From a virus (Duplodnaviria; Caudoviricetes), in IMG/VR virus record IMGVR_UViG_3300011989_000257, positions 256,001-320,000 of that record: a DNA stretch of 64,000 bases; one strand, written 5' to 3'. The position numbers were made by a program, and so were the translations under genes. This document shows, piece by piece, positions 23,847 to 57,336 of this stretch; position 1 is the stretch's first letter; the number at the start of each line of letters is the position of its first letter. The notes beneath the pieces were generated by a model, which was not told where the DNA came from, did not search any database, and saw only the letters and a program-made list of their open reading frames with translations.

Positions 23847-23971
23847 ATCTTTTTTTTATAAAGGTAGGCTTCCTTTACCTACCATGACTGTTAATGGTTT
23901 TTGCTAGTTCAAGGTACTAGTAGACCAAGCGCAGAGCACAGTTTCACCATAAACTCCGAAAAGGATTATTG

Positions 23972-27330: not shown

Positions 27331-27354
27331 TTCGTAACATTATTTAAAAATTTG

Positions 27355-27436
27355 TGCATCGTGTAGGACTCGAACCCACGTTACCGTTTCCAGTACAGAT
27401 TAAGAGTCTGTTGCATAGCCTCTCTGCCAACGATGC
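27355..27436 (-). tRNA. tRNA-Lys(CTT) with long variable arm
   Basis: ACAGA-CTCTTAA-TCTGT; variable stem ACTG-GAAA-CGGT. Confidence 0.8.
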
Positions 27437-31118: not shown

Positions 31119-31133
31119 ATAATATATGTCTTG

Positions 31134-31216
31134 AGACGAGGGTGGGATTTGAACCCACGTGCCTTGCGGCCAAAGGTTTTGCAGACCTAGGCGATTGACC
31201 ACTCCGCCACCTCGTC
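31134..31216 (-). tRNA. tRNA-Cys(GCA) with long variable arm
   Basis: AGGT-CTGCAAA-ACCT; GCC-GCAA-GGC variable stem; U73. Confidence 0.82.
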
Positions 31217-40025: not shown

Positions 40026-40154
40026 AGTTAAAATGCCAACACTCTAGAATTCTTGCATTATATCCTCTATAGTCTTATGCTGCTCTTATTGTAATTCCAT
40101 TTATGGATACGATTCAATAATTAGAGGTTGCCTAAAGACTTGTGTTAACATTTG

Positions 40155-40240
40155 TCGGAGGAGAGGGACTCGAACCCCCAGTGTTTCTGATGTGCTGGTT
40201 TTACAGACCAGTGCTAGTCCACCATCCTAGCTGCCCTCCG
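40155..40240 (-). tRNA. tRNA-Tyr(GTA) with C1:G72
   Basis: CTGGT-CTGTAAA-ACCAG, long variable region, acceptor CGGAGGG/TCCTCCG-A. Confidence 0.85.
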
Positions 40241-40277
40241 ATTAAGCATAGGTTTCTCAACCACAATCCTTTCCTTG

Positions 40278-40634
40278 TTACTTAAATTTATATTCTATAA
40301 CATAGACATTTTTATTACCTCTGCGGTATTGTTCAATCTTTACATCATTATACATTTCTTTATGTCTTTCAGTAAAACCGCTTCTGATGAACTCAAAAAA
40401 TTTTTTCTCTTTTTCGTTGTCTGTTACGATGTATATGTCCTTAAATATATTTGTTTCTGGAACTCTACATGTCATACTTCTAACCCCTCTGAACTTGTTA
40501 TTGGTTGCCCAACCACCTTGTTCAATAAGGCCAATCGTAAACTCTTCCCAAATGGGAATATCAACTTTTAAAAATAAATTTTGTCCAAATACATCTTTTT
40601 CATTTAAATACTCTTTTGTAATTGCTTCTCTCAT
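40278..40634 (-). CDS. hypothetical protein
   Basis: ORF. Confidence 0.65.
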   Translation of the reverse strand: MREAITKEYLNEKDVFGQNLFLKVDIPIWEEFTIGLIEQGGWATNNKFRGVRSMTCRVPETNIFKDIYIVTDNEKEKKFFEFIRSGFTERHKEMYNDVKIEQYRRGNKNVYVIEYKFK

Positions 40635-40781
40635 TTGCTTCTTTATTTAGAACTACTAATGTAACTATTAATATCTTCTAATTCACCTTCAAGTTTAGCA
40701 AGCTTTTCTTTATGCCAATTAATCTTGTTTACTATAGTATTTTTTCTGTCGTTTAATATTTTTAAGTCACTATTATTCATT

Positions 40782-41219
40782 CTATTTAAATTTTCCTAGC
40801 CTTATAGCCTCAACAAGATAGTTATATACCGTTTCCCAATCTGTCTCGGCATCGAATCCGAACTTATCGTCTATTCCTACATTAAAATACGTCTTTTCAT
40901 CAAAGCAAGACAATTCGTTATTCTTTGTCTCGCTATTGCTGTTAACCATATCGAAGCTAATGCCATTAGCTTTAAAATATTCCAGATATTCATTTATCGA
41001 TTCCTTATGACTAGATGTCCAGAGTATGAGACTGATGTTCCTAGCATAACTCATTATCTGAAGTGCCTCCTTTGAGAATGGATACCACTTATGGTTTTCC
41101 TTCTCGTGGTAGCAAGCTTCAAATATCGTATCGTGGATGTCCACAAGCACATATATATGCTCCCAATTACGGTCTTTCATACGCTTGAAAGCGTTGTCGA
41201 AACTTTTCTCTATACTCAT
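40782..41219 (-). CDS. HAD-like phage protein
   Basis: LVDIHDTI, LWTSS, GIDDK motifs. Confidence 0.7.
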   Translation of the reverse strand: MSIEKSFDNAFKRMKDRNWEHIYVLVDIHDTIFEACYHEKENHKWYPFSKEALQIMSYARNISLILWTSSHKESINEYLEYFKANGISFDMVNSNSETKNNELSCFDEKTYFNVGIDDKFGFDAETDWETVYNYLVEAIRLGKFK

Positions 41220-41235
41220 AACATTATATTATTTG

Positions 41236-41306
41236 CCACACTAAAATGGACTCGAACCACCTACTTCAGAACGCCGTTCTGCGTGCTACCGTTACACCAT
41301 AGGTGA
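41236..41306 (-). ncRNA. tRNA-Gln-like body with 3-nt anticodon loop
   Basis: D arm GGTGTAACGGTAGCAC, CAGAAC-GGC-GTTCTG, T loop. Confidence 0.5.
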
Positions 41307-41439
41307 ATTGACCTCAACTTAACCATAATCTCCACGAGTTAACATTGGAAACTCATAATGTGAAAATAAGCAAGAATCGAACACTGCTTTGTTGAATTTA
41401 CCACAATCTCGGTCAGCGAACGGAGTCGAACCGTATTCG

Positions 41440-41512
41440 TTGGGATTGAGGGAATCGAACCCCCACAAGCCAAGAGCCAGAATCTTGCGTACTACCTTTA
41501 TACTAAACCCCA
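41440..41512 (-). tRNA. tRNA-Gln(CTG)
   Basis: CAAGA-TTCTGGC-TCTTG. Confidence 0.85.
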
Positions 41513-41628
41513 AAGTAAGCTGAAACTCTAGCTAGTAACGTATCATGGCAGCATCCTTACCTATTCTCTCCACCTCGCAGTGACGTGGGGCAATTTAGCC
41601 AATCAACGTAGTTTCAGCTATGTTGTAA

Positions 41629-41706
41629 GGGAACAATAAAAATTCGTTTATCTAAAACCCAAATCTAGTAACTAATTTTATCAATAATTACTTGCTGTAT
41701 GTTCCC
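41629..41706 (-). ncRNA. CAGCAA-stem RNA 12 (cargo: Pro TGG anticodon stem-loop)
   Basis: GGGAACA-TACAGCAAG...CTAGA-TTTGGGT-TTTAG...TGTTCCC. Confidence 0.7.
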
Positions 41707-41876
41707 ACTATAAGCGTAGCAAGGTTACTAGATTTCACTCAAATGACTTTACACATTAAACGTATCTGCATGCACCGTACACATGGTAACCATACACATG
41801 GACTTAAAGAAACCTAATAGGCTCACACTGATTTAATTCTGTCCGTTTCTTGAGACTGTCCTAGCACTTCTTGCTT

Positions 41877-41950
41877 TGGTAGCGCATAGGGGAGTCGAAC
41901 CCCTCTTCTCACATCGAAAGTGTGGTGTCCTACCGATAGACGAATGCGCC
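41877..41950 (-). tRNA. tRNA-Glu(TTC), CCA encoded
   Basis: CACA-CTTTCGA-TGTG. Confidence 0.88.
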
Positions 41951-42101
41951 ATATAGTAAAAGGTCAGAGCACCATAGATAACTTCGTTTTCACAATTCGG
42001 ACTTACTTACCCTCATAAGAGGTACTATTTCTTCCAAGTAAATGTGCTGTACACACACATCTCTCATGCCTAGCTATCATCATCGAATGATTAACCTTTT
42101 G

Positions 42102-42174
42102 TATTGGGTACGAGGCTCGAACTCGTAGTCTTCACAGTGAGAGTGTGATGCCTTACCAATTTGGCCAACCCAAC
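42102..42174 (-). tRNA. tRNA-Glu(CTC)
   Basis: TCACA-CTCTCAC-TGTGA. Confidence 0.85.
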
Positions 42175-42353
42175 ATATGTAGTGTTTTAAAAGTGGAGGG
42201 TGGGCAGTTTGTACCTGCATTCTATGAGTAGTATAATCTACAAGTGTCCTAACATTTAGATGACCTACAACACACTTGAATTTATAATGCTACTATTTCA
42301 AGCACTGTTCGCATTGGCATTGAACCATCAGTGTGTTATCCCTCCAATTATGT

Positions 42354-42518
42354 TTATGCCCCCATATCACAATCTTCTGCTAGTCCGTTCTCAACCAAAT
42401 CAATATATGTCATATTGTCTAGTTCTTCGTCGGAATAGGAACTCAGCAGTTTGAGATACTTTTGGTGACGTTCTTTCTCTTTATTTTGCAATTCTTTTCT
42501 TTTTGAAATCCCTTCCAT
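42354..42518 (-). CDS. small hypothetical protein (start revised to MEGI)
   Basis: Downstream of promoter at 42540. Confidence 0.55.
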   Translation of the reverse strand: MEGISKRKELQNKEKERHQKYLKLLSSYSDEELDNMTYIDLVENGLAEDCDMGA

Positions 42519-42909
42519 AATATCATTTTTTAATTTCGATGCAAAGATATGAAAAAAAATTGAGATAACCAAATTTTTATCAAGCTTTTAACGTATTTAA
42601 ACAATTTAAGGGTGAACATTCCGTAGATTGTCCACCCAATTTCATTATTATACTTTGTTTAATAAAAAAGCTCAATTATAATAACAGAATGATACAAATC
42701 TACATTAGAATAGGTACATGCCTCCACGTCTTGGATAACCATATCCAAGTTCTCTAGGCTGCTCTTCTATATGTAGACTAAATGTAATCATATTATTAAA
42801 ATATTAAACTGTTTATTATAAATATATGTTATTTTCAAAAAATATCAAGTTTTATAGTGCAAAGATATAAAAAATATTTTTAATTTCCAAATTTTTTAGA
42901 GGAAAAATG

Positions 42910-43341
42910 TTATTCCGCATTATGTTTTGCCATCATTGCTTCAATCATTTCCTCTGTTAGTTCTTGATAGATATCAGTTCCCTTTGCAATACCATAGACT
43001 TCTTTTGTCCAACCAAAGACAGAGGTTCCAGTACTGCCAATCTTAAACCAAAGTTCATTTGTATGACTAGCATCTGAAATTTCCCATACTTGATGTACCA
43101 TAGGCCATGCAACACCATCTTCCCCTTTGAGTATGCAGAACACGCAATCGCCTCTTTTAACATCACGTGGGACACAAGGCATCACCTTACAATACTCCAT
43201 ATCGTTGATTAAAGGGGTTAGACTTTTACCCATTTCCCAATGATAGAATGATTCTCCATTTTTCAATGCTTGTTCCATTTCATAGGGGTCTTGTATTACT
43301 CTAAGTCCCTCTATAGTTTTTGGTTCATTTACAATTTTCAT
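42910..43341 (-). CDS. S24/S26-like domain protein
   Basis: GKSLTPL...GDCVFC...VYG, resembles 17252-17578. Confidence 0.55.
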   Translation of the reverse strand: MKIVNEPKTIEGLRVIQDPYEMEQALKNGESFYHWEMGKSLTPLINDMEYCKVMPCVPRDVKRGDCVFCILKGEDGVAWPMVHQVWEISDASHTNELWFKIGSTGTSVFGWTKEVYGIAKGTDIYQELTEEMIEAMMAKHNAE

Positions 43342-43346
43342 ATTTA

Positions 43347-44915
43347 CTAAAGTTTTAGAATATCAAAAATACTATTATTATTTTTATCTGTTACAGTAAA
43401 GCCATTGCCCATTAACTTGAACATTTTGTTTAAGTCATAGTTAAGCCCTTTAATTGAAGTGTCAAGAGCATCGAAATAAGCATCAAGCCCATCCATATAT
43501 AAGTTAAGTGAACTTATTCCGTTCTCTATTTTAATGTCTGGCATTTTAGGCAGTGATGGGGTTTTAATGTTATATTCCTTCATTTTGTTTATTGTTTCTT
43601 CCACCAAAGCCCTTTTTTCCCTAAGCCTTTTTTCCTCTTCTGCTATTCTTTTTTGCCTCTCTTTTTCTTCTCTTTCAATCCTCTCTTGCCTAGCTTTTTC
43701 TTTTCTAGCCTTTTCAGCCTCATATTCCTCAATGGTATATGCCCCCAATTCATCCCAAGCAATCTTGAAATGGTCATTTGGGTTAAATCCTTCAAGGAAA
43801 TGTCTTTCCACACCATTTTTACCATCTATGGAAAGTGGGTCGTTTATGTTTTTGGCAAACTTTATGAGCAAATATACTGTATCATCTTCTGAAATAAAAT
43901 TACCGTGATTATAATTCAAAATGCTAGGATATGCTATTTGAACATCTAGTCTTGTATTTGCTGGAATCATAAGTCCATTTTTCTTCTCTCCACTAGGCTT
44001 TTCATATACTATTGGTTCATCACTTACAATTCTGAGTGTTTTTACAAATTTTTCCTCTTTGATAAGTTTTCCACTAGGTGTTACAACATAACCATCAGTA
44101 TAATCCTTAAACCCACTTAATTTCAGTAATACATATCTGATAGTATTGTCAATATCACTAGTTGGAGTTGTACCTAAATTAGTTTTATCAAAGGGTATAT
44201 CATCCTTAACTCGTTTCCAATTAAGATGTTTTGGGAATAACTGCAAGCCATTCTCATATTCGATACCCATACATTCGCAATCATGTTTTGACAAAGTAAA
44301 TATTTTATCTTGGTATCCTCCTACTTGTTTAACAATTACAGAATTTATGTTAATGCCATCATATTCATCATGTATGCCAACGAGTTCGTATATCTTTTCA
44401 GGCATTTCAAACCCTTCACAAGAAACGCCACTCAACGCATATTTTTCGCCTTTTATAAATTTAGGCACATAGTTTGCATCCTCATTAACGACACCCATAT
44501 CAGTAAAATCCACTGCTTCAAATAATTCTTTTGGCTGAATGAATAGATTTTCGATATGTTCATTATTTGATGGCATGTTCATTTTCTTTTTGGTTTGCGA
44601 AAAATCAGCATCTACCATTTCAGAAATACCTTTTATTAGGCTGTCAGATAATTTCATAGAGTTCGTTTTTGTATTCCACATAGGGTCATGAATTAATTCG
44701 GATAATTTAACAGTTATCTCTCTATTATCTAATGCATTTTTCAAATGTATAGAATCACTTGTGACATATGCATCAGAAACAATCCAATCGTCACTTAGGA
44801 CGATTGGAACTTGTTCTATATTGTTAACATTATATACTTTAACCATATGCATTTTATATCCTTTTGGTACATTTGCAAATGGTCTACGTACTTTTGGTGG
44901 TGTTGGCTTACCCAT
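43347..44915 (-). CDS. hypothetical protein with charged coiled coil
   Basis: 522 aa ORF. Confidence 0.8.
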   Translation of the reverse strand: MGKPTPPKVRRPFANVPKGYKMHMVKVYNVNNIEQVPIVLSDDWIVSDAYVTSDSIHLKNALDNREITVKLSELIHDPMWNTKTNSMKLSDSLIKGISEMVDADFSQTKKKMNMPSNNEHIENLFIQPKELFEAVDFTDMGVVNEDANYVPKFIKGEKYALSGVSCEGFEMPEKIYELVGIHDEYDGININSVIVKQVGGYQDKIFTLSKHDCECMGIEYENGLQLFPKHLNWKRVKDDIPFDKTNLGTTPTSDIDNTIRYVLLKLSGFKDYTDGYVVTPSGKLIKEEKFVKTLRIVSDEPIVYEKPSGEKKNGLMIPANTRLDVQIAYPSILNYNHGNFISEDDTVYLLIKFAKNINDPLSIDGKNGVERHFLEGFNPNDHFKIAWDELGAYTIEEYEAEKARKEKARQERIEREEKERQKRIAEEEKRLREKRALVEETINKMKEYNIKTPSLPKMPDIKIENGISSLNLYMDGLDAYFDALDTSIKGLNYDLNKMFKLMGNGFTVTDKNNNSIFDILKL

Positions 44916-44917
44916 TA

Positions 44918-46207
44918 TTATTCAATTAACTTTTGGTCTCTCTTACCACGAAGTTCGCTTGAAATAACTTTCTGTGTAGATTCTGCAATGCCAATAGATT
45001 TCATATGCATTTCTTTATCTAGTTTTGCGATTTCAGCCTCAGCAGCAGCACGTTTCTCAGCGCCTTCCTTCTGAGCCTTCTGTACACCCTCCACAGTTGC
45101 TACAAGCTCTTGTGTTGTTTTACGAAGAGTTTCCACATCAAGAACCATACGCTGACTCTGCTTTGCAACCTCGATAGCTTGTACCTTCATCATTTCAGCA
45201 TTCTTACGGAACAACTCATTAGTGGTATCAGTAACCTTTGTACCAATCTCAATAGCTTGTTTCTGGTCATACAATGCAACAGCTAATGACAACTGATTCT
45301 TCCAAAGAGGAATTGTCATAGCAATCTGAGACTCAGTGTTATTAGCATGCATGATGTTTGTACGTTGAATAATACGAATCTGAGTCAATGACTGCTTGAA
45401 CGCATAACGAAGAGCGATAAGGTCAGTGAGTCGCTTATCAAGAGCATTCTTATACTCATCGATGTCACTAATCTGATACTCTTCATATTCTTCTGAGCGT
45501 GACTTCATATCATCGATAAGTGCTCCAAGCTCCTCTGACTTCATCTTGCCTGCTACAATAAGGTCTTCCAATTGGTCTACATAATCACAGTTATTCTCAA
45601 ACTGCTTCTGTAAGAGATTATTATCCCTAATGGCAATCTGACGTGTAGCCTCTAGTTTCTTAACAATACCATCAATATTCTTTTCAATGGTATCATACTT
45701 TGCCTTAATCTGTTCTACAGATACGATGAGTTTTCTCAACCCAGGAATTCTACGCAAGAATCTCTTGACCGCACTTGGGGCTTCAAGGTCGCTAACGTCA
45801 ACCTCATGCAACTCTCCCAAAAGATTTGAAATCAATTGAGCTGACTCAATACCAGCTTTAGAATCAAATGACTGCTTAAGGAAATCACTTGAGTAAGAAC
45901 TCATAGCCCTCTGAAGGTCAGAACCATAACTAGTTATGGTGGACATCTCCTTTTCATTGAGGACTGATGCTATTTCTTTGTAATAAGCCTTACGACTTGG
46001 TGATAGATTAGATGTGTTAATTTCACCCCTATCATCAACACGTTTTAAGGCAGTGCTACCATTTGTGAGTTCTGCTTCAGCCTCTTCAGAGACTTCATCA
46101 ATTGTACGTCTTGTACGAACTGGAGACTTACGAGTACCTTTTTTAGCTGTTGACTTCTTTACTTCTGTCACCTCAGCATCAACCACAGTTCTTGTCTTTT
46201 TTGCCAT
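44918..46207 (-). CDS. toxic anion resistance protein TelA/KlaA family
   Basis: Coiled-coil with QIRIIQ..N and TIPLWKNQL motifs. Confidence 0.85.
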   Translation of the reverse strand: MAKKTRTVVDAEVTEVKKSTAKKGTRKSPVRTRRTIDEVSEEAEAELTNGSTALKRVDDRGEINTSNLSPSRKAYYKEIASVLNEKEMSTITSYGSDLQRAMSSYSSDFLKQSFDSKAGIESAQLISNLLGELHEVDVSDLEAPSAVKRFLRRIPGLRKLIVSVEQIKAKYDTIEKNIDGIVKKLEATRQIAIRDNNLLQKQFENNCDYVDQLEDLIVAGKMKSEELGALIDDMKSRSEEYEEYQISDIDEYKNALDKRLTDLIALRYAFKQSLTQIRIIQRTNIMHANNTESQIAMTIPLWKNQLSLAVALYDQKQAIEIGTKVTDTTNELFRKNAEMMKVQAIEVAKQSQRMVLDVETLRKTTQELVATVEGVQKAQKEGAEKRAAAEAEIAKLDKEMHMKSIGIAESTQKVISSELRGKRDQKLIE

Positions 46208-46344
46208 TATTATTCTATTTTAAGTTATTAATATTTTGATTTTGTGCAAATATATAGTTTTTTTTTGTAATTTCAAAATTTATATTGTTAATAAAAATAA
46301 AAAATTCCACCCAAGTTATTTATTCTTAGGTGGAATCATTTTCT

Positions 46345-46776
46345 TTAGAATGGTAAATCATCCTCAGAACTTGATGCGGCTGTTGCAGCAACGGTTTCTG
46401 CCTCATTAGCCTTTTTCTTAAATGTTCCAGTATCTGCTACAGTTTCACTTGATTGTGTGTCTCCAGACTTACCTAGATTAACAAAATCCACTCTGTCTGC
46501 TATCACATCCCTAGAAACCATAGTTTCGCCATTCTTACTCTGATAAGTTCCAACAGTTTCTACACCAAGAACACTAACTGCGCTTCCTTTCTTCAAGAAT
46601 TCTAGCATCTTAGTGCCTTTCTCAGCGTAATACGAGACATTAATCCATGCTGTCCCTCTTTCACCGTTCTTGAACTCATCAGTTGCTATTCTCATGGAAA
46701 CAAACTGTTTCCCACCTTTGGAAGTCTTGAGTTCTGCATCAGCCCCAAGTCTTCCCATGAAATTGACGTTTATCAT
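46345..46776 (-). CDS. ssb: single-stranded DNA-binding protein
   Basis: GRLGADAEL OB-fold start, acidic tail EDDLPF. Confidence 0.92.
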   Translation of the reverse strand: MINVNFMGRLGADAELKTSKGGKQFVSMRIATDEFKNGERGTAWINVSYYAEKGTKMLEFLKKGSAVSVLGVETVGTYQSKNGETMVSRDVIADRVDFVNLGKSGDTQSSETVADTGTFKKKANEAETVAATAASSSEDDLPF

Positions 46777-46798
46777 TGTTATCTAAGTTTTTAGTTGT

Positions 46799-47053
46799 TT
46801 ATATAAAGATTATAATTTTTTCTCCTTTAACACTCCAACCTTGATTTTTCATTACTTCAAATTCATCTTGTGGCATTTCAGATTCTATTAATTCGTCAAT
46901 ATCCACCTCATAATAGTAATCCAATGTATCACCATCCATCTGTAATGAAACATTGGCAAATTTTGTTATATTCGCCAAAGCTGCTGCTGAAATGTGGTTT
47001 TTAATTTCTGAACTATTATCTTTCAGAAGTTCTATTAATTCACTCTTTGTCAT
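46799..47053 (-). CDS. hypothetical protein (start revised to MTKS)
   Basis: Downstream of promoter at 47072. Confidence 0.6.
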   Translation of the reverse strand: MTKSELIELLKDNSSEIKNHISAAALANITKFANVSLQMDGDTLDYYYEVDIDELIESEMPQDEFEVMKNQGWSVKGEKIIIFI

Positions 47054-47122
47054 GTTAATTAAGTTTAACGATGCAAAGATATAGTTAATTTTCGTAAATT
47101 CCAAATATTTATTAAAAAAAAT

Positions 47123-47617
47123 ATGAAACCAAGTAAGATTAATGTATTAAAAGCTAAGAAAGCACTATTTTTATTCTCAGGATTTAGAGCATTAACTTGG
47201 AAAGGAATTGCTTATTGCAAAGAAAAGTCTGATATCCAATTAATTAGCGCTCAAGATACTATAAACAGTAACTTCGAATCTCATGAAATGACTCATGTAA
47301 AACAAGCTGAAAGCACACACGACTCATGGTTCTGTTTTTATACCTTATATATATGGTATTGGATTCTCAATTTCCCATTATTTATACGTGGAAAGTTTAT
47401 GCCATATTATTTTATTCCATTTGAACTTGAAGCAATGGCACATGAAACAGATTGGAAATATCCAACCAATGGTGCTGTGTTTGAATGGAATAAATTTAAA
47501 AAATTAACACTAAAGGATAAACTTAGTTTAGCTAAAGACTATAATAAAAATTTTAAAAGAAATGGTTTTAAATGGTATGTAAGAAAGGTAATATACCCAA
47601 TGATAAATGAGGACTAG
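47123..47617 (+). CDS. HExxH-motif protein (zincin-like)
   Basis: HEMTHVKQ...PFELEA; one of two plus-strand genes. Confidence 0.7.
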   Translation: MKPSKINVLKAKKALFLFSGFRALTWKGIAYCKEKSDIQLISAQDTINSNFESHEMTHVKQAESTHDSWFCFYTLYIWYWILNFPLFIRGKFMPYYFIPFELEAMAHETDWKYPTNGAVFEWNKFKKLTLKDKLSLAKDYNKNFKRNGFKWYVRKVIYPMINED

Positions 47618-47640
47618 ACAATCTAGCCCTCATTCTTTAT

Positions 47641-49005
47641 TTAGAAGAACTTTTTCTTATCCTCTGCTGCCTTGATGTTCATCTTTGGCTTCATGAAGAA
47701 CTTGATATCAACTGTTGGCTCAATGAGCTTAACAATCTCATCCATTGGTTTGTAGGCATCTGGTGCTTCGTCTAGTGTTTTCTCGTCAGCAGTGGTGGTA
47801 TAGATACCTGCATCTGCCATCTGCTTCTGAAAGTCCTCTACGTTAAGCTGCTGATGGGCTTTCATCCTTGAGAGCGCCCTACCACAGCCATGCGGAGCTG
47901 TACAGTTCCAATCTTCATTTGATTTGCCTTCACATATTGAAATTCCATCCCTCATATTAAATGGTATGATTACTTTCTCTCCCTCATAAGCACGAATAGC
48001 ACCCTTACGAATCATCATATTTGGTGTACCCATCAATGCCTTGAAATCATAATCAATATAATTGTGAGTAGTAGCAATAAAATCGATTGGCTTACCACCA
48101 TCTGACATCTTTCGATAAATCTCAATCAACTGTTCATGAATCACCTCATGATTAAGTTTAGCATAAGTCTGAGCAATTAACACATCTACAAGATAGCCCA
48201 TAAGCTGGTCACCGTTCAAGTATCCTGGAATCTTACGTGATAAGTACTCCTCTCTTGCTGCATCAATCTCAGCCTTAATCTTCTGCTTGTCAGTATTCTT
48301 CTCCTTGACCTTATCCTCAAGCATCTTCATTTCCTCTCTTGAAACTACCATGCTTCTTGCTATCTTGTCCCAATAGTTGAATACTGCCAAACCTAGCTTA
48401 CGTGAGCCACAGTGTACGCACATGCAGTACTTACCCAACTCATCGTTGGCATCGTACTCTACGAAGTGATTACCTCCACCAACTGAGCCTATAGCCTTGA
48501 TAAAATCACCATAACCTATACGTACACGCTTACACCACTTCTCCAAATCCATTTCGTTGTTGAAGTAGATTGCATAATCAGCAAACTTTGGATAAAGAGA
48601 ACACAATCTGTCCATAGCCGAATTAACAGCCTTGGTGATACGCTTCCACTCAATCTTGGACTTATCGTTGATAGAGAAACCAAATGGAATCTCTTTACGA
48701 ATTTTGTGCTCAAACTCCTTCATCTTCTCCTCGACAATTGGTTTATCGAAGAAAGTAGCTGATATGGTACAACCGATATCGCAACCTACGTGCTGTGGAT
48801 TAACGTGGTCTGTCTCAATATTGACAGGACATGAGAATCCAATCACAATACCCTTACCATCGTGGCAGTCAGGCATAATTCTAATCTTCTTATCCTTGAA
48901 TGCCCTACAATCTGCTATACCGTATATGGTTGATATTGCGGTCTCCTCCACGTTATCAGTAAAGACCTTCACATCCTTACAATACTGTCCTTTAATTTCT
49001 AACAT
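47641..49005 (-). CDS. rtcB: RNA ligase RtcB
   Basis: MPDCH, VGCDIGC, GGGNHFVE, HCGSR, HNY, HGCGR, DEAPDAYK motifs. Confidence 0.95.
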   Translation of the reverse strand: MLEIKGQYCKDVKVFTDNVEETAISTIYGIADCRAFKDKKIRIMPDCHDGKGIVIGFSCPVNIETDHVNPQHVGCDIGCTISATFFDKPIVEEKMKEFEHKIRKEIPFGFSINDKSKIEWKRITKAVNSAMDRLCSLYPKFADYAIYFNNEMDLEKWCKRVRIGYGDFIKAIGSVGGGNHFVEYDANDELGKYCMCVHCGSRKLGLAVFNYWDKIARSMVVSREEMKMLEDKVKEKNTDKQKIKAEIDAAREEYLSRKIPGYLNGDQLMGYLVDVLIAQTYAKLNHEVIHEQLIEIYRKMSDGGKPIDFIATTHNYIDYDFKALMGTPNMMIRKGAIRAYEGEKVIIPFNMRDGISICEGKSNEDWNCTAPHGCGRALSRMKAHQQLNVEDFQKQMADAGIYTTTADEKTLDEAPDAYKPMDEIVKLIEPTVDIKFFMKPKMNIKAAEDKKKFF

Positions 49006-49010
49006 AATTT

Positions 49011-49892
49011 TTAAAATAATAAACTACCCTTATCATCCCACTGTGTATACAACTTGCAGTTTGGACGCAGAATAAGATACTTCAATGTTTTCTTTTCCTC
49101 ACTCTTAGCCATACAATCCTCATCAACAACTGTAGGCATACCCATTACTGAATAACGTCTACTGCCATACTCTAGAGTATCAAGATAACGACCATTTTTC
49201 ATGATGTAATCATGTAAGCCTTTAAAATATGGTTCTGTTTTTACACCATATTTCTCAATCCACTTTGACTGAGGCGAATCGTTACCATCGGTATACATTT
49301 TGCGAAATGTAACTTGGTCAGCACCTAATACCTTGCTACAATATTCAAAAATTGCTTCGTAACTACTCTTTGGTTCATCATAAAGAAAAATACACGTTGT
49401 TATATTGAGAGATAAACGAAGATTAAATCCAAATTCTTTAATTTTATCGCAAAGCCATTTCAAATTAATCGGTGTGTGGCTACTATTGATAATATCAGAA
49501 TTAACCCCATCATCATTCAAACAAGACACTGAAAGGCTAATTGTTGTAATACCATTATTGCGAAAACAATTTAGTGTATATTCATCAATTTTGGCTCCAG
49601 TTGTTTGAATCTCAATATTTCTAAAAGGCATAACCAATTCGGAATTCATCTTGGAGAAGTTGGTGATAAACTCAAGATTTTGCTGTGGTTCGCCTTGTCC
49701 AGTGAGCATAACAGTATTACAACCATTATCTCTAGCAAAAGCCATTCGTTTCTTATAATTCTCCCTATGGAAAAAATTATCAGTAGAAACGAGGTCTTCA
49801 TATTCCTCCTTATGCATACGGCTTACACAGAACTTGCACTGATTCATGCAGCCATGTGTTGGTACAACAATTGATAGTGATTGTATATTCAT
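49011..49892 (-). CDS. radical SAM protein
   Basis: CMNQCKFC, TGQGEP. Confidence 0.88.
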   Translation of the reverse strand: MNIQSLSIVVPTHGCMNQCKFCVSRMHKEEYEDLVSTDNFFHRENYKKRMAFARDNGCNTVMLTGQGEPQQNLEFITNFSKMNSELVMPFRNIEIQTTGAKIDEYTLNCFRNNGITTISLSVSCLNDDGVNSDIINSSHTPINLKWLCDKIKEFGFNLRLSLNITTCIFLYDEPKSSYEAIFEYCSKVLGADQVTFRKMYTDGNDSPQSKWIEKYGVKTEPYFKGLHDYIMKNGRYLDTLEYGSRRYSVMGMPTVVDEDCMAKSEEKKTLKYLILRPNCKLYTQWDDKGSLLF

Positions 49893-50323
49893 TATTTCAA
49901 TTTATTTAGTTCGTTCAAAGCAAATTCACAAGCATTATATAACTTATCGTTATTAAAGAGTTTTTCTTCAATACGCTTTCTACCTTCTTCATTGGTTAAT
50001 CTATAACCCTTCAAAAGTCTCAGAATATTGGCAAATGGTCTTGTGTTGACAGTAATAAACTCCTTATTGCCCATCATGCGGTACACCCTATAATTGAACT
50101 GATGCATCCATATTGGACGATTCGTCTTCATCAAGGTAAGACAAGACTTGGCATCATATTCATCATGGAATTCACGAGCCTCCTTGATGTTCTCAGTAAG
50201 TTCATATTCAGTATATGTCATTAGAGTACCATTAATCATTTCTTGCTTATCAAGACCTCTTTTATAGTAGAGAATTTTACCTTCTCCATCTACTAACTCA
50301 ATAAAATATTTAGATTTTGCCAT
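49892..50323 (-). CDS. hypothetical protein
   Basis: ORF in run. Confidence 0.7.
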   Translation of the reverse strand: MAKSKYFIELVDGEGKILYYKRGLDKQEMINGTLMTYTEYELTENIKEAREFHDEYDAKSCLTLMKTNRPIWMHQFNYRVYRMMGNKEFITVNTRPFANILRLLKGYRLTNEEGRKRIEEKLFNNDKLYNACEFALNELNKLK

Positions 50324-50326
50324 ATT

Positions 50327-50827
50327 TTAAACATTAAAATGGTCAATAAGATTCTTACGTGACTGTTCCTCTATCTTCTTCTTGAAAGCAGCCTTGGAAG
50401 CCTCAGTAAGAAACTCGCTCAACTCACTTGCACTAATTGAGTATTTGATACCGAACTTTTTAAATCTATCCGTATTCCTCAACTGATAATAATCAGACCT
50501 AGAATAGTATTTGGTATTGAAAGCAAATAGACGTGGTTCGCCATTTTCACCACCACCAATAAGAACCTTCAAGTAACCAAAATCAGCAACCTCAATAACT
50601 GACATCTTCTTATCAATTGGAGGACAATCGAGCATTTTAAGCATAAGCTCATTAAGCTTCTTAATCGTGCCATCCTTTGTCTCGCAACGTTCTTTCAGCT
50701 CTTGCATTGCATAATTCATTGAGTATGGGTTTGTTGTAAAGTGTACAATACACATAACAGCAAGCACCAAACAACACGCTACAAAAGCCCCCAATCCGAA
50801 TAAAAGTAAATACGTTATCATGCTCAT
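50327..50827 (-). CDS. membrane-anchored hypothetical protein (start revised)
   Basis: N-terminal TM; promoter at 50843. Confidence 0.65.
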   Translation of the reverse strand: MSMITYLLLFGLGAFVACCLVLAVMCIVHFTTNPYSMNYAMQELKERCETKDGTIKKLNELMLKMLDCPPIDKKMSVIEVADFGYLKVLIGGGENGEPRLFAFNTKYYSRSDYYQLRNTDRFKKFGIKYSISASELSEFLTEASKAAFKKKIEEQSRKNLIDHFNV

Positions 50828-50941
50828 AATTTTTATTTCTGCTGCAAAGTTACGAAAAAAATCTGAGGCTACCAAATTTCAGCCTCAGATTTAATATTAT
50901 TTAACAGTTAGGAATAAAGGACATGTTCGAGATGTTGCCAA

Positions 50942-51277
50942 TTAAGCGATTTCGTCCCAAATAAATTCTAGCATTTTCTCAGGTGCCTCTTTTATAAAGA
51001 TGTTGCACCATTGTCCTCTATGATTTTTGGTATTGATTCTAACGTCATCCAAAGAAGGTACACCTTCCATAGAGATTGGTTCATCACTAGTGATGCACAC
51101 CGAGACAATCTCAATCGAATTAGTAGCACTACCAAAGTCTTTGCCAATATTAATTCTCTTAGTATATACCTTATCCTCCATTGGATTTTCGCCTAAGATA
51201 TCAGCCTTTGTACTGTCTATTCCATTGGACATTATAATGCCGAGAATACCGCTTTCCAATTTAAACTTTTTATCCAT
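50942..51277 (-). CDS. hypothetical protein
   Basis: ORF. Confidence 0.65.
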   Translation of the reverse strand: MDKKFKLESGILGIIMSNGIDSTKADILGENPMEDKVYTKRINIGKDFGSATNSIEIVSVCITSDEPISMEGVPSLDDVRINTKNHRGQWCNIFIKEAPEKMLEFIWDEIA

Positions 51278-51292
51278 ATTATTTTTCTTTAA

Positions 51293-52309
51293 TTATTTTG
51301 CCAACTCCATTAAAAGAACATTCACACGTTCCAAAAGATGTAGCCCTTCATTGGGCTGGGTTTCTCTACCTTTTTCCGTGTTATAGTTTTTAATAGTTTG
51401 ATATTCTACTTGGTCAAACACTTTGATTTTCTTTTCAGTGTCACCGACAATAACTCCATAAGATATGTCAGTAGGACCATAGCAATTTTTTCTTACATAA
51501 GCCACTCTATCTCCATAGTGAAGTTTATTGTTTTTATTATCACAATGACGAATTGGTGTACCTTTTGGTATTTTTTGCGTTTCTTCTTTTTCTTTTTTCT
51601 TTTCGGCTGTTTTTCTACTATTAATGTATTCTCTTAATGCTTTATCTGCAACAGCTCTATCCAAGTGAATAGATATCTTTGTGTTATCAAACCACTTAGT
51701 CCCACGCTTCACATAGAAATATGGGTCACTGAATTTAGAAGCATTCTCCTCATATTTCGAATTGTAACAAGTGAATTCGAAATTGGTAGTATTTATTGTG
51801 ATTTTATGAGGATGTCCTTCTTTTGCATTATTTGAAACATTTTCTACAGTTTCTTCGATGACAATCTTATTTATTTTATCTACAACATAAAGTTTATCGC
51901 CATTTTTGAGCGCCCCTAAATAATGTCCTTCATTGATTTTCCCCAATCTCTCAATAGCATCATTCATATTTGTAGCAATGAGACCATATACAGATTTATT
52001 ATACAATGCTTTGGATAATTTCATGCCATTTGGCAAACCTCTTCCATAGAATGTATTGGTACATGGTTTAAAATCATGATTTTTCTTAGCATCACAATAG
52101 CGTATCTCAACCATACCATTGCTACTTCTAACAACATATTTTGCATTACAACTATTAATTTTCTTCTCTATTGGGTCTATCTCGAAAAGAATATCGCCAA
52201 AACTAACTATGGAATATTCTTCTGGATGATTATAATATTTGCAACATTTATTACCCTCATTATCAGATAAAACAACTCCTTTTATACTATCAAATTTTTT
52301 TGTTGCCAT
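51293..52309 (-). CDS. hypothetical protein
   Basis: 338 aa ORF. Confidence 0.75.
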   Translation of the reverse strand: MATKKFDSIKGVVLSDNEGNKCCKYYNHPEEYSIVSFGDILFEIDPIEKKINSCNAKYVVRSSNGMVEIRYCDAKKNHDFKPCTNTFYGRGLPNGMKLSKALYNKSVYGLIATNMNDAIERLGKINEGHYLGALKNGDKLYVVDKINKIVIEETVENVSNNAKEGHPHKITINTTNFEFTCYNSKYEENASKFSDPYFYVKRGTKWFDNTKISIHLDRAVADKALREYINSRKTAEKKKEKEETQKIPKGTPIRHCDNKNNKLHYGDRVAYVRKNCYGPTDISYGVIVGDTEKKIKVFDQVEYQTIKNYNTEKGRETQPNEGLHLLERVNVLLMELAK

Positions 52310-52312
52310 ATT

Positions 52313-52567
52313 TTAGAGCTTAATGGTTTTCACAAATCCTTTATCCTTAAATCTGTTATAGACATCTTGAGTAAGGTCATGTTCCTCTTGTCTCATTTGA
52401 TTCACAACATTCTGCAATTCCTCAATGGATTCCCTAGACTGCTTAAGATGGATAATGGAGAAATCAAAGTCCCCATTATCCTTACCAATCTCATTATTTA
52501 CTATATTGAGGTGCATATTGAAATTATCAATGCATCCTTCAACGTTTTTCTTATCTATCATATTCAA
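52313..52567 (-). CDS. hypothetical protein
   Basis: ORF coupled to nadE. Confidence 0.6.
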   Translation of the reverse strand: MNMIDKKNVEGCIDNFNMHLNIVNNEIGKDNGDFDFSIIHLKQSRESIEELQNVVNQMRQEEHDLTQDVYNRFKDKGFVKTIKL

Positions 52568-53469
52568 CCAAAAATATTACCGTTTTTCTCACAAATCAAA
52601 CCACGATATACATCAATAATGAAAGGACGCTGCTTACGCTTAAATTCAGAACGTACAGAACGCATGATAACAGCCTCTACTGTGTCATACCCATGCTTTT
52701 CACAAAGATTCTTGAAGATGCTATAATCAAAGTGACTCTTGATTACAGTTTCCTTGATTCTCGAATCAAGACCAACCCATGCATGCAGAATTTCGTCAAC
52801 ATCGTCATAGGTTTTACCAGGGGCAATCTGTGCAAGGTCTCCACCCTCTTTGACACCGTTGCCATCGGTTGGCATAAGTGCAATAGAAGCCTCAAGAGCT
52901 TTAGAATTCTTATACACATTCTCCTTCATCCACTTTGCAAGGGCATATACCTCATGTTTCCATAATCCCCCAATTGGATTGAAATCAGACTCATCACCAT
53001 GAAGGGTCCAGAACCCTAAAAAATGTTCTGTTAAGTTATCGGTGTCAAGTACAATACCACCAACTTTTGAAGCGATATCATACAATGTAATCATACGTAG
53101 ACGTGCCTTGATATTACCTTGTGAGATTGGAGTTTTCTCTTTCCCACTAGCTTCAGCACAGAACTTCTCCATCACCTCGTAAGGCTCTTGCAGATTGACA
53201 ACCTTAAAGGTGTCGCAAAACTCCATACCAGCTTCCTTAGCAGCATTGTTTTCATCATCCATATTGGTTGAGCATGGAAGAGAAATACCAATAAGAGGAA
53301 TGCCACTAGCCTTACAAAGTGCGGCAACAACAGTTGAATCAATGCCTCCACTTAGACCAAGAACCAATACTCCAATGTGATTCTCAGTTGCATAACTCTT
53401 AATTCCCTCTGTGAGATTCTTAAATACTTTCTCCATGTCTAATGGAGTTGAACGATAAGTTTCTACCAT
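52564..53469 (-). CDS. nadE: NH3-dependent NAD+ synthetase
   Basis: LGLSGGIDS, GNIKARLRM, TLHGD motifs. Confidence 0.93.
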   Translation of the reverse strand: MVETYRSTPLDMEKVFKNLTEGIKSYATENHIGVLVLGLSGGIDSTVVAALCKASGIPLIGISLPCSTNMDDENNAAKEAGMEFCDTFKVVNLQEPYEVMEKFCAEASGKEKTPISQGNIKARLRMITLYDIASKVGGIVLDTDNLTEHFLGFWTLHGDESDFNPIGGLWKHEVYALAKWMKENVYKNSKALEASIALMPTDGNGVKEGGDLAQIAPGKTYDDVDEILHAWVGLDSRIKETVIKSHFDYSIFKNLCEKHGYDTVEAVIMRSVRSEFKRKQRPFIIDVYRGLICEKNGNIFG

Positions 53470-53472
53470 AGT

Positions 53473-53994
53473 TTATTTGTTATTAATTGCATTACTTACT
53501 TTATCTTTCCTGAATTTTTCAATATCAGCATCCATCTTTATCCTTAAACATTTATTAGCAAGTTCTTTAACTTCTTCAATAGTCAATGCAACCTCCAATT
53601 GTATATCGGCTCTAGATGGTATTGTAGATGGTGATGAAACCATAAACCTTGGTTCAAGATTCTTATTGATAACAATTCTGCCTAACATTGTTCCTAAGCT
53701 ACTAAGCTGATTATGAAGTCGTTGAGTGTTGTAAATGTCATAAGGCTTTAAATCACGTTTAATATCGTCTTTGGTGAGATTTTCCATTTTATTGGCAAAG
53801 TCCATCAATGACTTGTTGTAATCATCGCCAAATCTGTTGGCATATTCAGTAATTTCCTCTAGGTCTTTTTTAACATCATTTTGTATCCCATTAATACGCC
53901 TTCTTTTAACATCTTTTTTATCCATACGGTCAGAAAATATCAATGCTGAAAAGAAAAGACCTAACATCGTAAATATAAGAATAAAAAATATCAT
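53473..53994 (-). CDS. membrane-anchored hypothetical protein (start revised to MIFF)
   Basis: N-terminal TM; promoter at 54010. Confidence 0.65.
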   Translation of the reverse strand: MIFFILIFTMLGLFFSALIFSDRMDKKDVKRRRINGIQNDVKKDLEEITEYANRFGDDYNKSLMDFANKMENLTKDDIKRDLKPYDIYNTQRLHNQLSSLGTMLGRIVINKNLEPRFMVSSPSTIPSRADIQLEVALTIEEVKELANKCLRIKMDADIEKFRKDKVSNAINNK

Positions 53995-54063
53995 ATAATT
54001 TTTTTTTTTTGCAAAGATACGAAAAAAAATTGAGATAGCCAAATAACTATCCCAATTTTAATA

Positions 54064-55353
54064 CTATTTAACACAAATCATCGTATAGTCTTTCTTTCCT
54101 TTAGTTAGAAGTAGATACTTACCATTGATGAGATATTTATCAGAAATTATTTCTTTTTCAACAGTGGTTTTAATCTTGTTGATTGAGAAACCATTACTCT
54201 TTATGAGTTTTCTTGCTTCAGACTTTGAAGGTACTTTGTCGTGCATTGCTGCAAGGTCAATTGCTGTAATACCACTGTCAAACGTATCTTTACTAATCTC
54301 CACAGTAGGAACACCGTTCATCGCAGCAAGAAACGTATTCTCATCGAGTTTTTCCATATCAGCCATAGTTCCCTTACCGAAAAGGATATTTGTGGCTTCC
54401 ATAGCCTTATTGTATTCCTCCTCAGAATGCACAAGACATGTCATATACTTAGCCAATTCTTTCTGCAAATAACGAGAACTAGGATTCTCACGATGTTTTT
54501 CAATCATGGCATTAATTTCATCAAGAGGAATAAGAGTAAATTTCTTGATAAACACTTCTGCATCTACATCAGAAACATTAAGCCAATACTGCATGAACTG
54601 ATAAGGGGAAGTCTTTTTTGGGTCAAGCCATACTGAGTTTCCTTCAGTTTTGCCAAACTTACGACCATCTGCACAAGTAATCAAGTCCCAAGTCAAACCA
54701 CACACATCATCTTTACCAAGCATCTTATGAACGAGGTCTTGACCAGTTACCATATTCCCTAGGTTATCAGTTCCAGCAATTTGAAGAGTACAACCATAAT
54801 TCTGATACAAATGAACGAAATCGTAACCTTGAAGTAAACCATAGCTGAACTCTTGGAAGCTAATACCATTCCCTTCTCTCTCAAGGCGTTTTCTTACATT
54901 TTCCTTTGCCATGAGATAGTTAACAGTAATCTTCTTACCGACATCACGTATGAAATCAAGGAACTTGTAATCCTTATACCAATCCCAATTGTTAACCATA
55001 ATGGCTGCATTTGGTGCATCTGAATCGAAATCAATAATCTTTGAAATTTGTTTCTTAACGCATTCTACATTATGGAATACAGTTTCCATTGAAATGGCTT
55101 TACGCTCCTCACTCTTTCCGCTTGGGTCTCCAATAGCGCAAGTAGCACCTCCAACCAATATGATGGGTTTATGACCATATTGCTGCATAAGTCTCGATAC
55201 CATAAGTCCGACCATATGGTGGATGCCAAGAGAATCAGATGTTGGGTCAAGACCTAGATAAAAGGTTGTTGGTTTACTAAAACACTCTTCTAGATTACCA
55301 AATGTCTGAGACCATAGTCCCCTTTCTTTAAGTTCTTTAATTAATGGATTCAT
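54064..55353 (-). CDS. tyrS: tyrosyl-tRNA synthetase
   Basis: YLGLDPTSDSL, IGDPSGK, LLQGYDF, KFGKT, C-terminal S4 domain. Confidence 0.95.
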   Translation of the reverse strand: MNPLIKELKERGLWSQTFGNLEECFSKPTTFYLGLDPTSDSLGIHHMVGLMVSRLMQQYGHKPIILVGGATCAIGDPSGKSEERKAISMETVFHNVECVKKQISKIIDFDSDAPNAAIMVNNWDWYKDYKFLDFIRDVGKKITVNYLMAKENVRKRLEREGNGISFQEFSYGLLQGYDFVHLYQNYGCTLQIAGTDNLGNMVTGQDLVHKMLGKDDVCGLTWDLITCADGRKFGKTEGNSVWLDPKKTSPYQFMQYWLNVSDVDAEVFIKKFTLIPLDEINAMIEKHRENPSSRYLQKELAKYMTCLVHSEEEYNKAMEATNILFGKGTMADMEKLDENTFLAAMNGVPTVEISKDTFDSGITAIDLAAMHDKVPSKSEARKLIKSNGFSINKIKTTVEKEIISDKYLINGKYLLLTKGKKDYTMICVK

Positions 55354-55653: not shown

Positions 55654-57336
55654 CTACAACTGAATGTAGTTAAGAATCTCTTGCGTAAGAGCCTTTTCAA
55701 CAAGTTCCTCTGCGGTAAGATTCCTTGCCTTTCCAGTCTTCTCATCAATCACCTTATCCTCTCCAAGCAATGTAGTGATAATACTTCCATCAAATCCACT
55801 AAGGAAAGTACATCCTGGTTCAATGCTCTTACCCTCAAAATGAGTAATTCCATGTCTTGAAACACAATCCCACCAAATGAATTTCATGTTATCCACAAAT
55901 TCCTCTGGGAAAACTGTCTTCAACGACTTCTTGGAGTACTCATAATTGGTTTCTTGGTTACGTGGAGAGTCATACCAACGATTAGTTGGATTAAACTCCA
56001 TATCACTTACCACCAATATAGTAGTAGGATACTGCTCCAATGGAATCTCTGGATGCTGTCGCCTAATCTTAATGATTTCGTCAACGGCAGATTGGAAATT
56101 TGTACCACCACATCCAACACTTGGAAGGTTCATTACCCTTTCACAGAACGACTCACCCTTCATGTCGTATGGATAAGAGGTGTTGTCGAACATAATGAGC
56201 TTATTGTGGAAAGCTCCAGTGTTAAGGCTAGAAAAGAATATTGCCAAAGATGTTGCAATATCTGAACAGTATACGTCCTTCAATCCAGTAACTGGCTGAT
56301 TCATTGAACCACTAGTGTCAAGGCAACACCATACATTCTCTGTAATCTTGCCGCCATCACGAGCCTTATCTACAAGTCCATTAAACTGCGCATCAATGGT
56401 ATGCTTAACCTCAATAGGTAGTTTCTTATTTGAAGTAGTATAATATCTTCTTGAACCAATACCGTATTCACGAAGTTTCTTTGAAAGCTCAAATACATAA
56501 CCAGTAAACTTAGCCACTGGCTGCTGCATTATCCATTGTGTGTAATTATCTTTCAAACCATGATTTGAAAGGAACTTACTAGTGACAAGTAAGTTCAATG
56601 CACGTCCTGGAATGTGATTCCAATTCAGTTCCTTATAATTACGAGAGCAAATCAATTTTTGGAAATCATGCGCCTTACCACTCACTTTCATCTTATTGTA
56701 TTCCTTATAAGAAATACCCATTTGATTTGCAAATGCCTTTGCCAAGTCATTTGTGATAGTAGTCCACTCTGTCTTACACTTACTCTGAGACTTGATACGA
56801 GGCATATACTTCTTAATCAAATCAACATGAGTGTCACAAAGCAAACCTTGTGCAATCACCTCAAACATAGCTTTTTGGTTTAAGCACTTAACATTCTCCT
56901 TAATGTCATAGAACATCAAAGTCCACAAGTCCTTCCAAGAGCCAACAAGTGGCAATGCCCAAATGTTCTTGTAGAATGCATCTGGTTGTTCTTGAGCAAT
57001 CCAAAGCAAACGCTTGAATGACTCATCACGAGCACCTTGTCCATTCTGAACCTTATCAGTCTCATTATCCGTGTTCACCTTAACCTTGCGAGTTACCATA
57101 CGCAAATAGAATGGGAAACGAAGTGCTGCTTCAGCATTCTCACCCCAAATGGTTGCTTGGTCAGCAAATACTTCCGCAAGTGTACGCCCTCTGAAGTTAC
57201 CAGCCTTACCAAATTGGTCAACAATTGCACTTCCAGTCGAAACAAGTGTTTTTGCTCCATTCTCTGTCAATGTTGAACTCTCGAAACCTACTGCATTAAG
57301 GAATGCGTTTGTCTTTGTCGCTGTCTTTGTATTCAT
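55654..57336 (-). CDS. DUF2828-family helical plus vWA protein (TROVE/Ro60-like architecture)
   Basis: TENGA start, GQGAR, GSWKDL; MIDAS DTSGSM, GGTNF, VSDMEF. Confidence 0.75.
   Translation of the reverse strand: MNTKTATKTNAFLNAVGFESSTLTENGAKTLVSTGSAIVDQFGKAGNFRGRTLAEVFADQATIWGENAEAALRFPFYLRMVTRKVKVNTDNETDKVQNGQGARDESFKRLLWIAQEQPDAFYKNIWALPLVGSWKDLWTLMFYDIKENVKCLNQKAMFEVIAQGLLCDTHVDLIKKYMPRIKSQSKCKTEWTTITNDLAKAFANQMGISYKEYNKMKVSGKAHDFQKLICSRNYKELNWNHIPGRALNLLVTSKFLSNHGLKDNYTQWIMQQPVAKFTGYVFELSKKLREYGIGSRRYYTTSNKKLPIEVKHTIDAQFNGLVDKARDGGKITENVWCCLDTSGSMNQPVTGLKDVYCSDIATSLAIFFSSLNTGAFHNKLIMFDNTSYPYDMKGESFCERVMNLPSVGCGGTNFQSAVDEIIKIRRQHPEIPLEQYPTTILVVSDMEFNPTNRWYDSPRNQETNYEYSKKSLKTVFPEEFVDNMKFIWWDCVSRHGITHFEGKSIEPGCTFLSGFDGSIITTLLGEDKVIDEKTGKARNLTAEELVEKALTQEILNYIQL

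Follow-up and report, generated by a model that had tools for sequence, protein, structure and literature searches.

We report here that a huge phage of Bacteroidales appears, on balance, to encode a working tyrosyl-tRNA synthetase (TyrRS) together with its own tRNA-Tyr, and that the two seem co-adapted at the acceptor end of the tRNA, a reading drawn from the comparison of sequences. Both genes lie in a stretch of 64,000 nucleotides (nt), hereafter the window, which corresponds to bases 256001-320000 of the IMG/VR record IMGVR_UViG_3300011989_000257 (Duplodnaviria; Caudoviricetes), a genome of 412,514 bp rated complete by CheckV. The observations concern the gene content of this and related phages, the conservation of the two genes, the structure of a clade of TyrRS found only in phages, and the association of this clade with an unusual first pair in tRNA-Tyr. 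A preliminary description of the window had proposed that this first pair and two deviant motifs of the enzyme belong together, and our analysis supports a part of that proposal.

The phage genome has 42 tRNA-like genes and a transfer-messenger RNA, nearly all on the minus strand within the window. They make up a near-full set, in which ARAGORN finds a single tRNA-Tyr(GTA) in all 412,514 bp. The acceptor strands of this tRNA read CGGAGGG and TCCTCCG (counted from the T arm), which confirms the C1:G72 pair noticed earlier. The discriminator is A73, followed by CAA, and CCA is not encoded. The T stem is GGGGG/CCCTC, the T loop is TTCGAGT, position 8 is a C in place of U, and five pairs make up the D stem. 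The variable region had been called long and of bacterial type: it has 15 nt (CACATCAGAAACACT) and forms no stem in the phage copy. The tRNA-Tyr of the relatives G006 and G007 has a 3-bp variable-arm stem (CCC/GGG) at this place. Among eight related sequences, including the phage copy, two-sided compensatory changes are found at 14 of the 22 cloverleaf pairs. Throughout this alignment, A73 and the anticodon loop with GUA (CU-GUA-AA) are kept, and acceptor pairs 4-7 vary while 1:72 stays fixed. In the copy of a relative whose TyrRS is 81% identical, pair 7:66 and the D stem differ in a compensatory way. The Rfam tRNA model scores below threshold at this locus, where the top match is tRNA-Sec with 27.6 bits, under its gathering score. 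The covariation at 14 pairs nevertheless indicates that the cloverleaf is real, and the phage tRNA-Tyr appears functional. In spite of C1:G72, the pair is not a tyrosine pair of the archaeal/eukaryal type, since the variable region is long and the enzyme is bacterial-type with PF22421.

The TyrRS matches TIGR00234 (tyrS) with 329 bits, for a cut-off of 113.8, over positions 6-405 of the 406 in the profile. It has the PF00579 domain (E = 1.5e-67) and the S4-like C-terminal domain PF22421 (E = 4.6e-11), its closest solved structures are bacterial TyrRSs, and it is the sole class Ic synthetase in the phage genome. An AlphaFold model (mean predicted local distance difference test of 84; weak at loops ~71-90 and 144-163) confirms the fold only. 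Both motifs singled out in the preliminary description are present: the HIGH signature is replaced by G43-I-H-H46 (SLGIHH where others have SLHIGH), and GSDQWGN by G194-T-D-N-L-G-N200. The equivalent of KMSKS, K232-F-G-K-T236, is intact. The tyrosine pocket is also present (Y32, D76, Y171, Q175, and D178, equivalent to Y34, D78, Y169, Q173, and D176 of the Bacillus stearothermophilus enzyme, Bst, whose numbering was transferred from its TyrRS chain in the PDB), as are K82 and R86.

More than 100 clusters of a public protein collection are 81-100% identical to the phage TyrRS, and several of them lie on contigs of 370-430 kb. Across 28 variants in this range of identity, G43, H45, H46, D196, N197, L198, G199, and N200 are invariant, and GIHH and GTDNLGN are not sequencing noise. 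The tyrosine pocket and KFGKT are invariant as well, except for Y32, retained in 90% or more of the variants. The ratio of nonsynonymous to synonymous substitution rates (dN/dS) ranges from 0.06 to 0.11 in pairwise comparisons of three genes of the same enzyme type (type A, see below). The enzyme thus looks functional and under strong purifying selection. To place the motifs among other TyrRSs, we compared the enzyme with the 133 full-length representatives closest to it among 50%-identity clusters of 1.8 billion proteins. The position of N197 is Gln in all 133, that of L198 is Trp in 124, position 43 is His in 116, and position 45 is Gly in 130. The combination G..H at 43/45 has a single occurrence, in P0122 (53% identical, GVHH), the nearest neighbour. 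The Trp is absent from all three nearest neighbours (P0122, P0126, and P0128).

Genes related to this TyrRS (50-81% identity) are present at 19 loci of the IMG/VR database, many of them on records of 300-412 kb. Next in proximity comes the cluster P0123 (51%), which is the usual TyrRS of Bacteroidales from rumen and gut, among them Prevotellaceae and Segatella albensis. The phage TyrRSs group into one clade (n = 21, support 1.0) in a maximum-likelihood tree, as sister to the TyrRS of Bacteroidales (parent support 0.95). Bst position 196 is occupied by L, I, Y, or F in all 21 phage sequences (W196L in the phage under study), and by W in each of the 43 other tips of the sister clade, 40 of which are host Bacteroidales genes. 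The IMG/VR sequence L097, which nests among the hosts, has W at 196 too. This is the sole position that is replaced in every phage lineage, three outliers included, while being invariant in the 40 hosts and 95% conserved in the representatives. The residues at 53 and 72 are likewise different in the whole phage clade, but they are less conserved among the representatives. Residue W196 corresponds to W201 in Escherichia coli, R198 in Thermus thermophilus, R193 in Saccharomyces cerevisiae, and R174 in Methanocaldococcus jannaschii (Eco, Tth, Sce, and Mja; Tsunoda et al., PMC1934993). In the solved complexes, arginines at the equivalent site bond A73, itself stacked on base 72, the archaeal/eukaryal arginine also reads C1, and the lack of cross-charging between domains has been ascribed to the 1:72 pair (PMC1934993).

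Two types of enzyme can be distinguished in the clade. Type A, found in the phage under study, G001, G002, G018, and partly P0122, has GxHH, Q195N, G191A, S153N, T165Q, R207H, and P221D. Type B (14 records) has the canonical HLGH and SDQ[Y/F]GN. The changes specific to type A (Bst H45G, G47H, S153N, T165Q, G191A, Q195N, R207H, and P221D; phage residues 43-47, 152, 167, 193, 197, 209, and 223) cluster at residues lining the ATP/adenylate site, and they look like a separate remodelling, independent of the first pair of the tRNA. Reportedly, the mutagenesis of Bedouelle placed R207 and K208 of the Bst enzyme among the residues that bind the acceptor arm.

We found 13 tRNA-Tyr genes in 11 genomes of the TyrRS clade, and all of them have C1:G72 or U1:A72 (0/13 have G1:C72), in agreement with the earlier claim that a flipped pair accompanies the phage TyrRS. 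The seven genes with C1:G72 (G000, G001, G012, G020, G016, G006, and G007) share the body with C8 and a 5-bp D stem; the enzyme is of type A in G001 and of type B in G012, G020, G016, G006, and G007. The six genes with U1:A72 are found in G006, G007, G019, G014, and G005, with type B enzymes, and in G018, with a type A enzyme. Their body is nearly that of the host tRNA-Tyr, and its D arm reads TTCCAGAGTGGTCAAATGGG. The acceptor strands vary with compensation (CGGAGGG, CGGAAGG, and CGGGAGG; TGTGGAG, TGTGTGG, and TGGTGGA), and the first pair stays pyrimidine-purine. Enzyme type and first pair can be separated. In G012, a type B enzyme (59% identical, with HLGH and DQY) lies beside a tRNA-Tyr that is 96% identical to the one of the phage, and in G018 a GxHH enzyme of type A lies beside a tRNA-Tyr with U1:A72. 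Hence, GIHH and Q195N are not tied to 1:72. The link between tRNA and motifs put forward in the preliminary description therefore holds for the Leu of GTDNLGN, which occupies the site of the Trp contacting A73 and 1:72, but not for GIHH or the change of Gln to Asn. The co-variation of 1:72 with TyrRS residues across phages, suggested there as a check, gave the same division: it is seen for the loss at position 196 and not for GIHH or Q195N.

These numbers can be compared with those of hosts and of phages lacking the clade. The host is a rumen or gut Bacteroidales, and in six Bacteroidales genomes each of the eight tRNA-Tyr genes has G1:C72 and A73. A strict pattern of the D arm of tRNA-Tyr matched only 3 of 121 Bacteroidales genomes, which hints at Segatella-like hosts but is no broad baseline. 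With a search pattern that is neutral regarding the first pair, we collected 54 distinct phage tRNA-Tyr genes, 49 of which have G1:C72. None of the 49 records of these background phages that we searched has a TyrRS (24 of the records are at least 90% complete). The two bodies seen in the clade exist with G1:C72 in complete phages lacking TyrRS: the host-like body in G086 (34 kb) and G087 (307 kb), and the body with C8 and a 5-bp D stem in G054. The flip therefore arose on two different tRNA bodies. For matched bodies, it is seen twice, and only where the TyrRS clade is present. Among jumbo phages with a TyrRS, XbC2 and fHe-Yen9-04 combine GSDQWGN with G1:C72, the reading being less clean in fHe-Yen9-04.

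From these observations we infer which enzyme charges which tRNA, and what the phage may gain from it. The ancestor of this group of huge phages would have taken the TyrRS gene from a Bacteroidales host. On the branch leading to the phage clade, the Trp lying against A73 and the 1:72 pair would have disappeared from the enzyme, and phage tRNA-Tyr genes would then have come to carry a pyrimidine-purine first pair (C1:G72, or U1:A72 in relatives) instead of the G1:C72 of the host. The phage enzyme would charge tRNAs with C1:G72 or U1:A72, with a relaxed or switched preference at 1:72. This would give the phage a supply of Tyr-tRNA that is independent of the host tRNA-Tyr, and perhaps of the host TyrRS too. 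The most likely benefit would be survival when host defences destroy or block tRNA-Tyr. It is known that Septu and the PtuAB of retron-Eco7 cut tRNA-Tyr within its variable loop and that phage tRNA-Tyr genes rescue infection (PMC13096335, PMC11555353). The tRNA-Tyr of T5 resists by its distinctive loop, and T6 escapes by amplification of its tRNA-Tyr gene (PMC11555353, PMC13096335). A tRNA-Tyr that differs from the one of the host in the variable region, the core, and the first pair, accompanied by an adapted enzyme, fits a module that works after the host tRNA-Tyr has been destroyed. The module thus probably secures the supply of Tyr-tRNA when the host tRNA-Tyr is attacked. A stronger version of this scenario, close to the private pair suggested in the preliminary description, is that of a naturally evolved orthogonal pair built from bacterial parts, in which the loss of the Trp switched the preference of the enzyme, the host TyrRS rejects the phage tRNA, the private channel survives an attack by the host on tRNA-Tyr or TyrRS, and GxHH with Q195N is a working variant of HIGH. 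We hold this version to be unlikely.

Several points weigh against co-adaptation at the acceptor end. The loss of W196 counts as a single event in evolution and the flips as two at most, which leaves the association strong in counts and weak in independent events. A few other TyrRS clusters likewise have Y or L at position 196. The stretches read of the clade records G002, G008-G011, G013, and G017, which are mostly fragments, yielded no tRNA-Tyr, and neither did those read of G021, which is rated complete and whose TyrRS gene looks truncated. Among the background phages, five of the 54 genes lack G1:C72 (C:G in L022b and L029, U:A in L070b, A:U in L028, and G:U in L027), and no TyrRS was found on the contigs of L029, L022, and L070 (18-57% complete; the contigs of L027 and L028 lay outside the search). 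Host enzymes may therefore charge such tRNAs. In line with this, the bacterial-type TyrRSs of human mitochondria and of the Plasmodium apicoplast are indifferent to 1:72 (PMC6310243), and the validated bacterial determinants of tyrosine identity tabulated by Giege and Eriani are A73, G34, and U35 only (PMC9976931). The same facts would fit a situation without any coupling, where a Bacteroidales TyrRS blind to 1:72 charges the phage tRNA-Tyr, the phage TyrRS adds capacity for a TAT-rich genome (3416 TAT and 947 TAC codons in its long open reading frames, ORFs), and the loss of W196 and the flip are neutral or otherwise selected. We consider this possible, if on the unlikely side. Drift should leave some G1:C72, yet all 13 genes, on two bodies, are pyrimidine-purine while pairs 4-7 vary. 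Moreover, the same bodies keep G1:C72 in complete phages lacking TyrRS, and the sole residue that is replaced clade-wide and invariant in hosts lies at the contact with the acceptor end.

The type A enzyme might also have ceased to be an ordinary TyrRS, either because its chemistry is altered (nucleotide or amino-acid handling, resistance to an inhibitor or toxin) or because it charges a different RNA, for instance the amber suppressor tRNA(CUA) that is encoded in the window. The first His of HIGH has become Gly, a Gln found in 133 of the 133 representatives has become Asn, seven more conserved positions (47, 86, 152, 167, 193, 209, and 223) change alongside, and the anticodon stem-loop of the suppressor equals the one of tRNA-Tyr except for C34. 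This explanation is nonetheless improbable, given that the tyrosine pocket, KFGKT, K82, R86, and the S4-like domain are retained, that dN/dS is low, and that types A and B take each other's place beside the same tRNAs. As for the suppressor, its anticodon stem differs in G001 and its first pair is G1:C72. We looked for recoding of TAG and rejected it: long ORFs showed no genome-wide gain upon readthrough of TAG or TGA, and TAG, which terminates 14 of 196 long ORFs, seems to split only a few. It is even less probable, to the point of being hardly credible, that the RNA with C1:G72 is a decoy or tRNA mimic and not a translating tRNA. The weak Rfam scores, C8, the 5-bp D stem, and the stemless variable region could be taken to suggest it. 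Yet this is the sole tRNA with a Tyr anticodon in a genome whose tRNA set is otherwise near-full, its cloverleaf, GUA anticodon loop, and A73 are conserved with covariation, and other phages have this body, with G1:C72, as their tRNA-Tyr. Co-adaptation of the enzyme and the tRNA at the acceptor end is the reading that we favour.

The searches also returned a number of loci that stand apart from the clade. L022 (G004), L070 (G069), L028, and L029 (G003) are on unrelated incomplete phage contigs with a second or lone non-canonical tRNA-Tyr. Two of the five background genes without G1:C72 sit beside a canonical copy of tRNA-Tyr, and non-canonical first pairs may be a wider theme in phage tRNA-Tyr. 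We considered G003 (L029) and G004 (L022) as counter-examples, as they have C1:G72 and no TyrRS was found in them; they are unrelated to the phage (2 and 4 shared ORFs, respectively), 57% and 18% complete, and not decisive. The tRNA-Tyr of Yersinia phage fHe-Yen9-04 (L245, LT960551.1, ~318.9 kb), whose TyrRS has the canonical HIGS and GSDQWGN, can be read in two ways: with G1:C72, A73, an A7/C66 mismatch, and a CCCA tail, or with U1:A72, C73, and an exact CCA. One TyrRS match, in G093 (L291, C1:157352-158128, on a 240-kb IMG/VR record), was set aside because it is a 352-aa enzyme of the archaeal/eukaryal type; the record is probably a virus of a host from another domain. Locus L283 (G089, a 392-kb record) has the 5' half of a host-like tRNA-Tyr (GGGAAGG, a D arm of the Bacteroidales type, and CTGTAA) followed by unrelated sequence, and may be an intron-containing or a broken or split gene. 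Within the clade, no tRNA-Tyr was found in the stretches read of G015, and the tRNA arrays of the P0126 and P0128 contigs, read in fragments of 38 and 54 kb, are without tRNA-Tyr.

The features discussed are listed in the table below. The neighbourhood of TyrRS, SSB, and TelA recurs on the contigs of P0126 and P0128 (L081 and L082), the deepest members of the clade, and RtcB is found on the P0126 contig too. The remaining tRNAs of the phage mostly follow the bacterial rules at the acceptor end (C1:G72 and A73 for Pro, U1:A72 and G73 for Asn, G73 for Ser, and U73 for Cys). Long variable arms and D arms resembling those of class II tRNAs were observed in tRNAs of 82-87 nt with Trp, Cys, Lys, and Met anticodons, all on the minus strand.

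Table. Positions, in the window, of the genes discussed in the text.
Feature	Position	Strand	Remarks
Met(CAU) tRNA	19165-19246	-	82 nt; A1/A72 mismatch; resembles initiator tRNA
Amber suppressor tRNA(CUA)	15506-15597	-	92 nt; G1:C72, G2.U71, A73, 3-bp D stem, 8-bp variable-arm stem
Trp(CCA) tRNA	23971-24057	-	Long variable arm; U1:A72 with G73
Lys(CUU) tRNA	27354-27436	-	Long variable arm
Cys(GCA) tRNA	31133-31216	-	Long variable arm
tRNA-Tyr(GUA)	40155-40240	-	ARAGORN call at 40154-40240; C1:G72, A73, C8, 5-bp D stem
TelA	44918-46207	-	Near the tRNA-Tyr/TyrRS pair
RtcB RNA ligase	47641-49005	-	Between the tRNA array and tyrS; context only
Radical SAM protein	49011-49892	-	
NAD synthase-like protein	52564-53469	-	
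TyrRS	54064-55353	-	429 aa; bacterial-type; type A of the phage-only clade
DUF7788/DUF2828 protein	55654-57336	-	

The switch between G1:C72 and C1:G72 is the textbook case of a tRNA identity rule dividing the domains of life, and the orthogonal pair in widest use is built on it. A flip of this pair, with U1:A72 as an alternative, in a bacterial-type phage system with a one-residue change at the matching contact, would offer a small and testable model of identity rules. If the pair turned out to be insulated from the host, it would represent a new type of counter-defence, where the phage replaces both the tRNA and the enzyme that charges it, and it would provide a new scaffold for genetic code expansion, bacterial-type and dependent on the variable arm. 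The enzyme with GxHH and Q195N can be seen as a natural experiment on the HIGH motif of class I synthetases and, if the orthogonal pair were real, it would be a working variant of the class I HIGH site that had not been described before. Our search of the literature found no description of a GxHH TyrRS, nor of a phage clade of bacterial-type TyrRS lacking the acceptor-end Trp and paired with a C1:G72 or U1:A72 tRNA-Tyr.

The closest known parallel is in bacteria of the candidate phyla radiation (Mukai et al. 2017, PMC5370408), which encode a bacterial tRNA-Tyr with a long variable region and C1:G72 along with a matching TyrRS. However, their TyrRS is an import of the archaeal/eukaryal type, whereas the phage enzyme is bacterial-type, with the S4-like domain, probably derived from Bacteroidales, and changed at one contact with the acceptor end. 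In addition, the host of the phage keeps G1:C72, and relatives of the phage use U1:A72 as an alternative. The TyrRSs of human mitochondria and of the Plasmodium apicoplast (PMC6310243) are also bacterial-type and accept tRNA-Tyr without G1:C72 (A1:U72 in the apicoplast). Their relaxed specificity was shown by kinetics, while the phage pair is known from sequence and its tRNAs are consistently pyrimidine-purine. Phages T5, facing retron-Eco7, and T6, facing Septu (PMC11555353, PMC13096335), have a tRNA-Tyr with an unusual variable loop and show that tRNA-Tyr is a proven point of conflict between phages and hosts. Unlike the phage studied here, they lack a TyrRS and need the host enzyme, and the change affects the variable loop or the gene dosage, not 1:72. 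The phage TrpRS:tRNA-Trp(UCA) pairs of code-change operons (bioRxiv 10.1101/2025.10.30.685624) similarly associate a synthetase with its own tRNA, and the AP1 pair is orthogonal in E. coli. Yet their tRNA is a suppressor of stop codons, while here the tRNA-Tyr reads sense codons and no genome-wide recoding was found. Finally, jumbo phages of Proteobacteria (Eneladusvirus and Mimasvirus) are also huge and encode a bacterial-type TyrRS with a tRNA-Tyr, but the enzyme has the canonical HIGS and GSDQWGN and the tRNA-Tyr has G1:C72.

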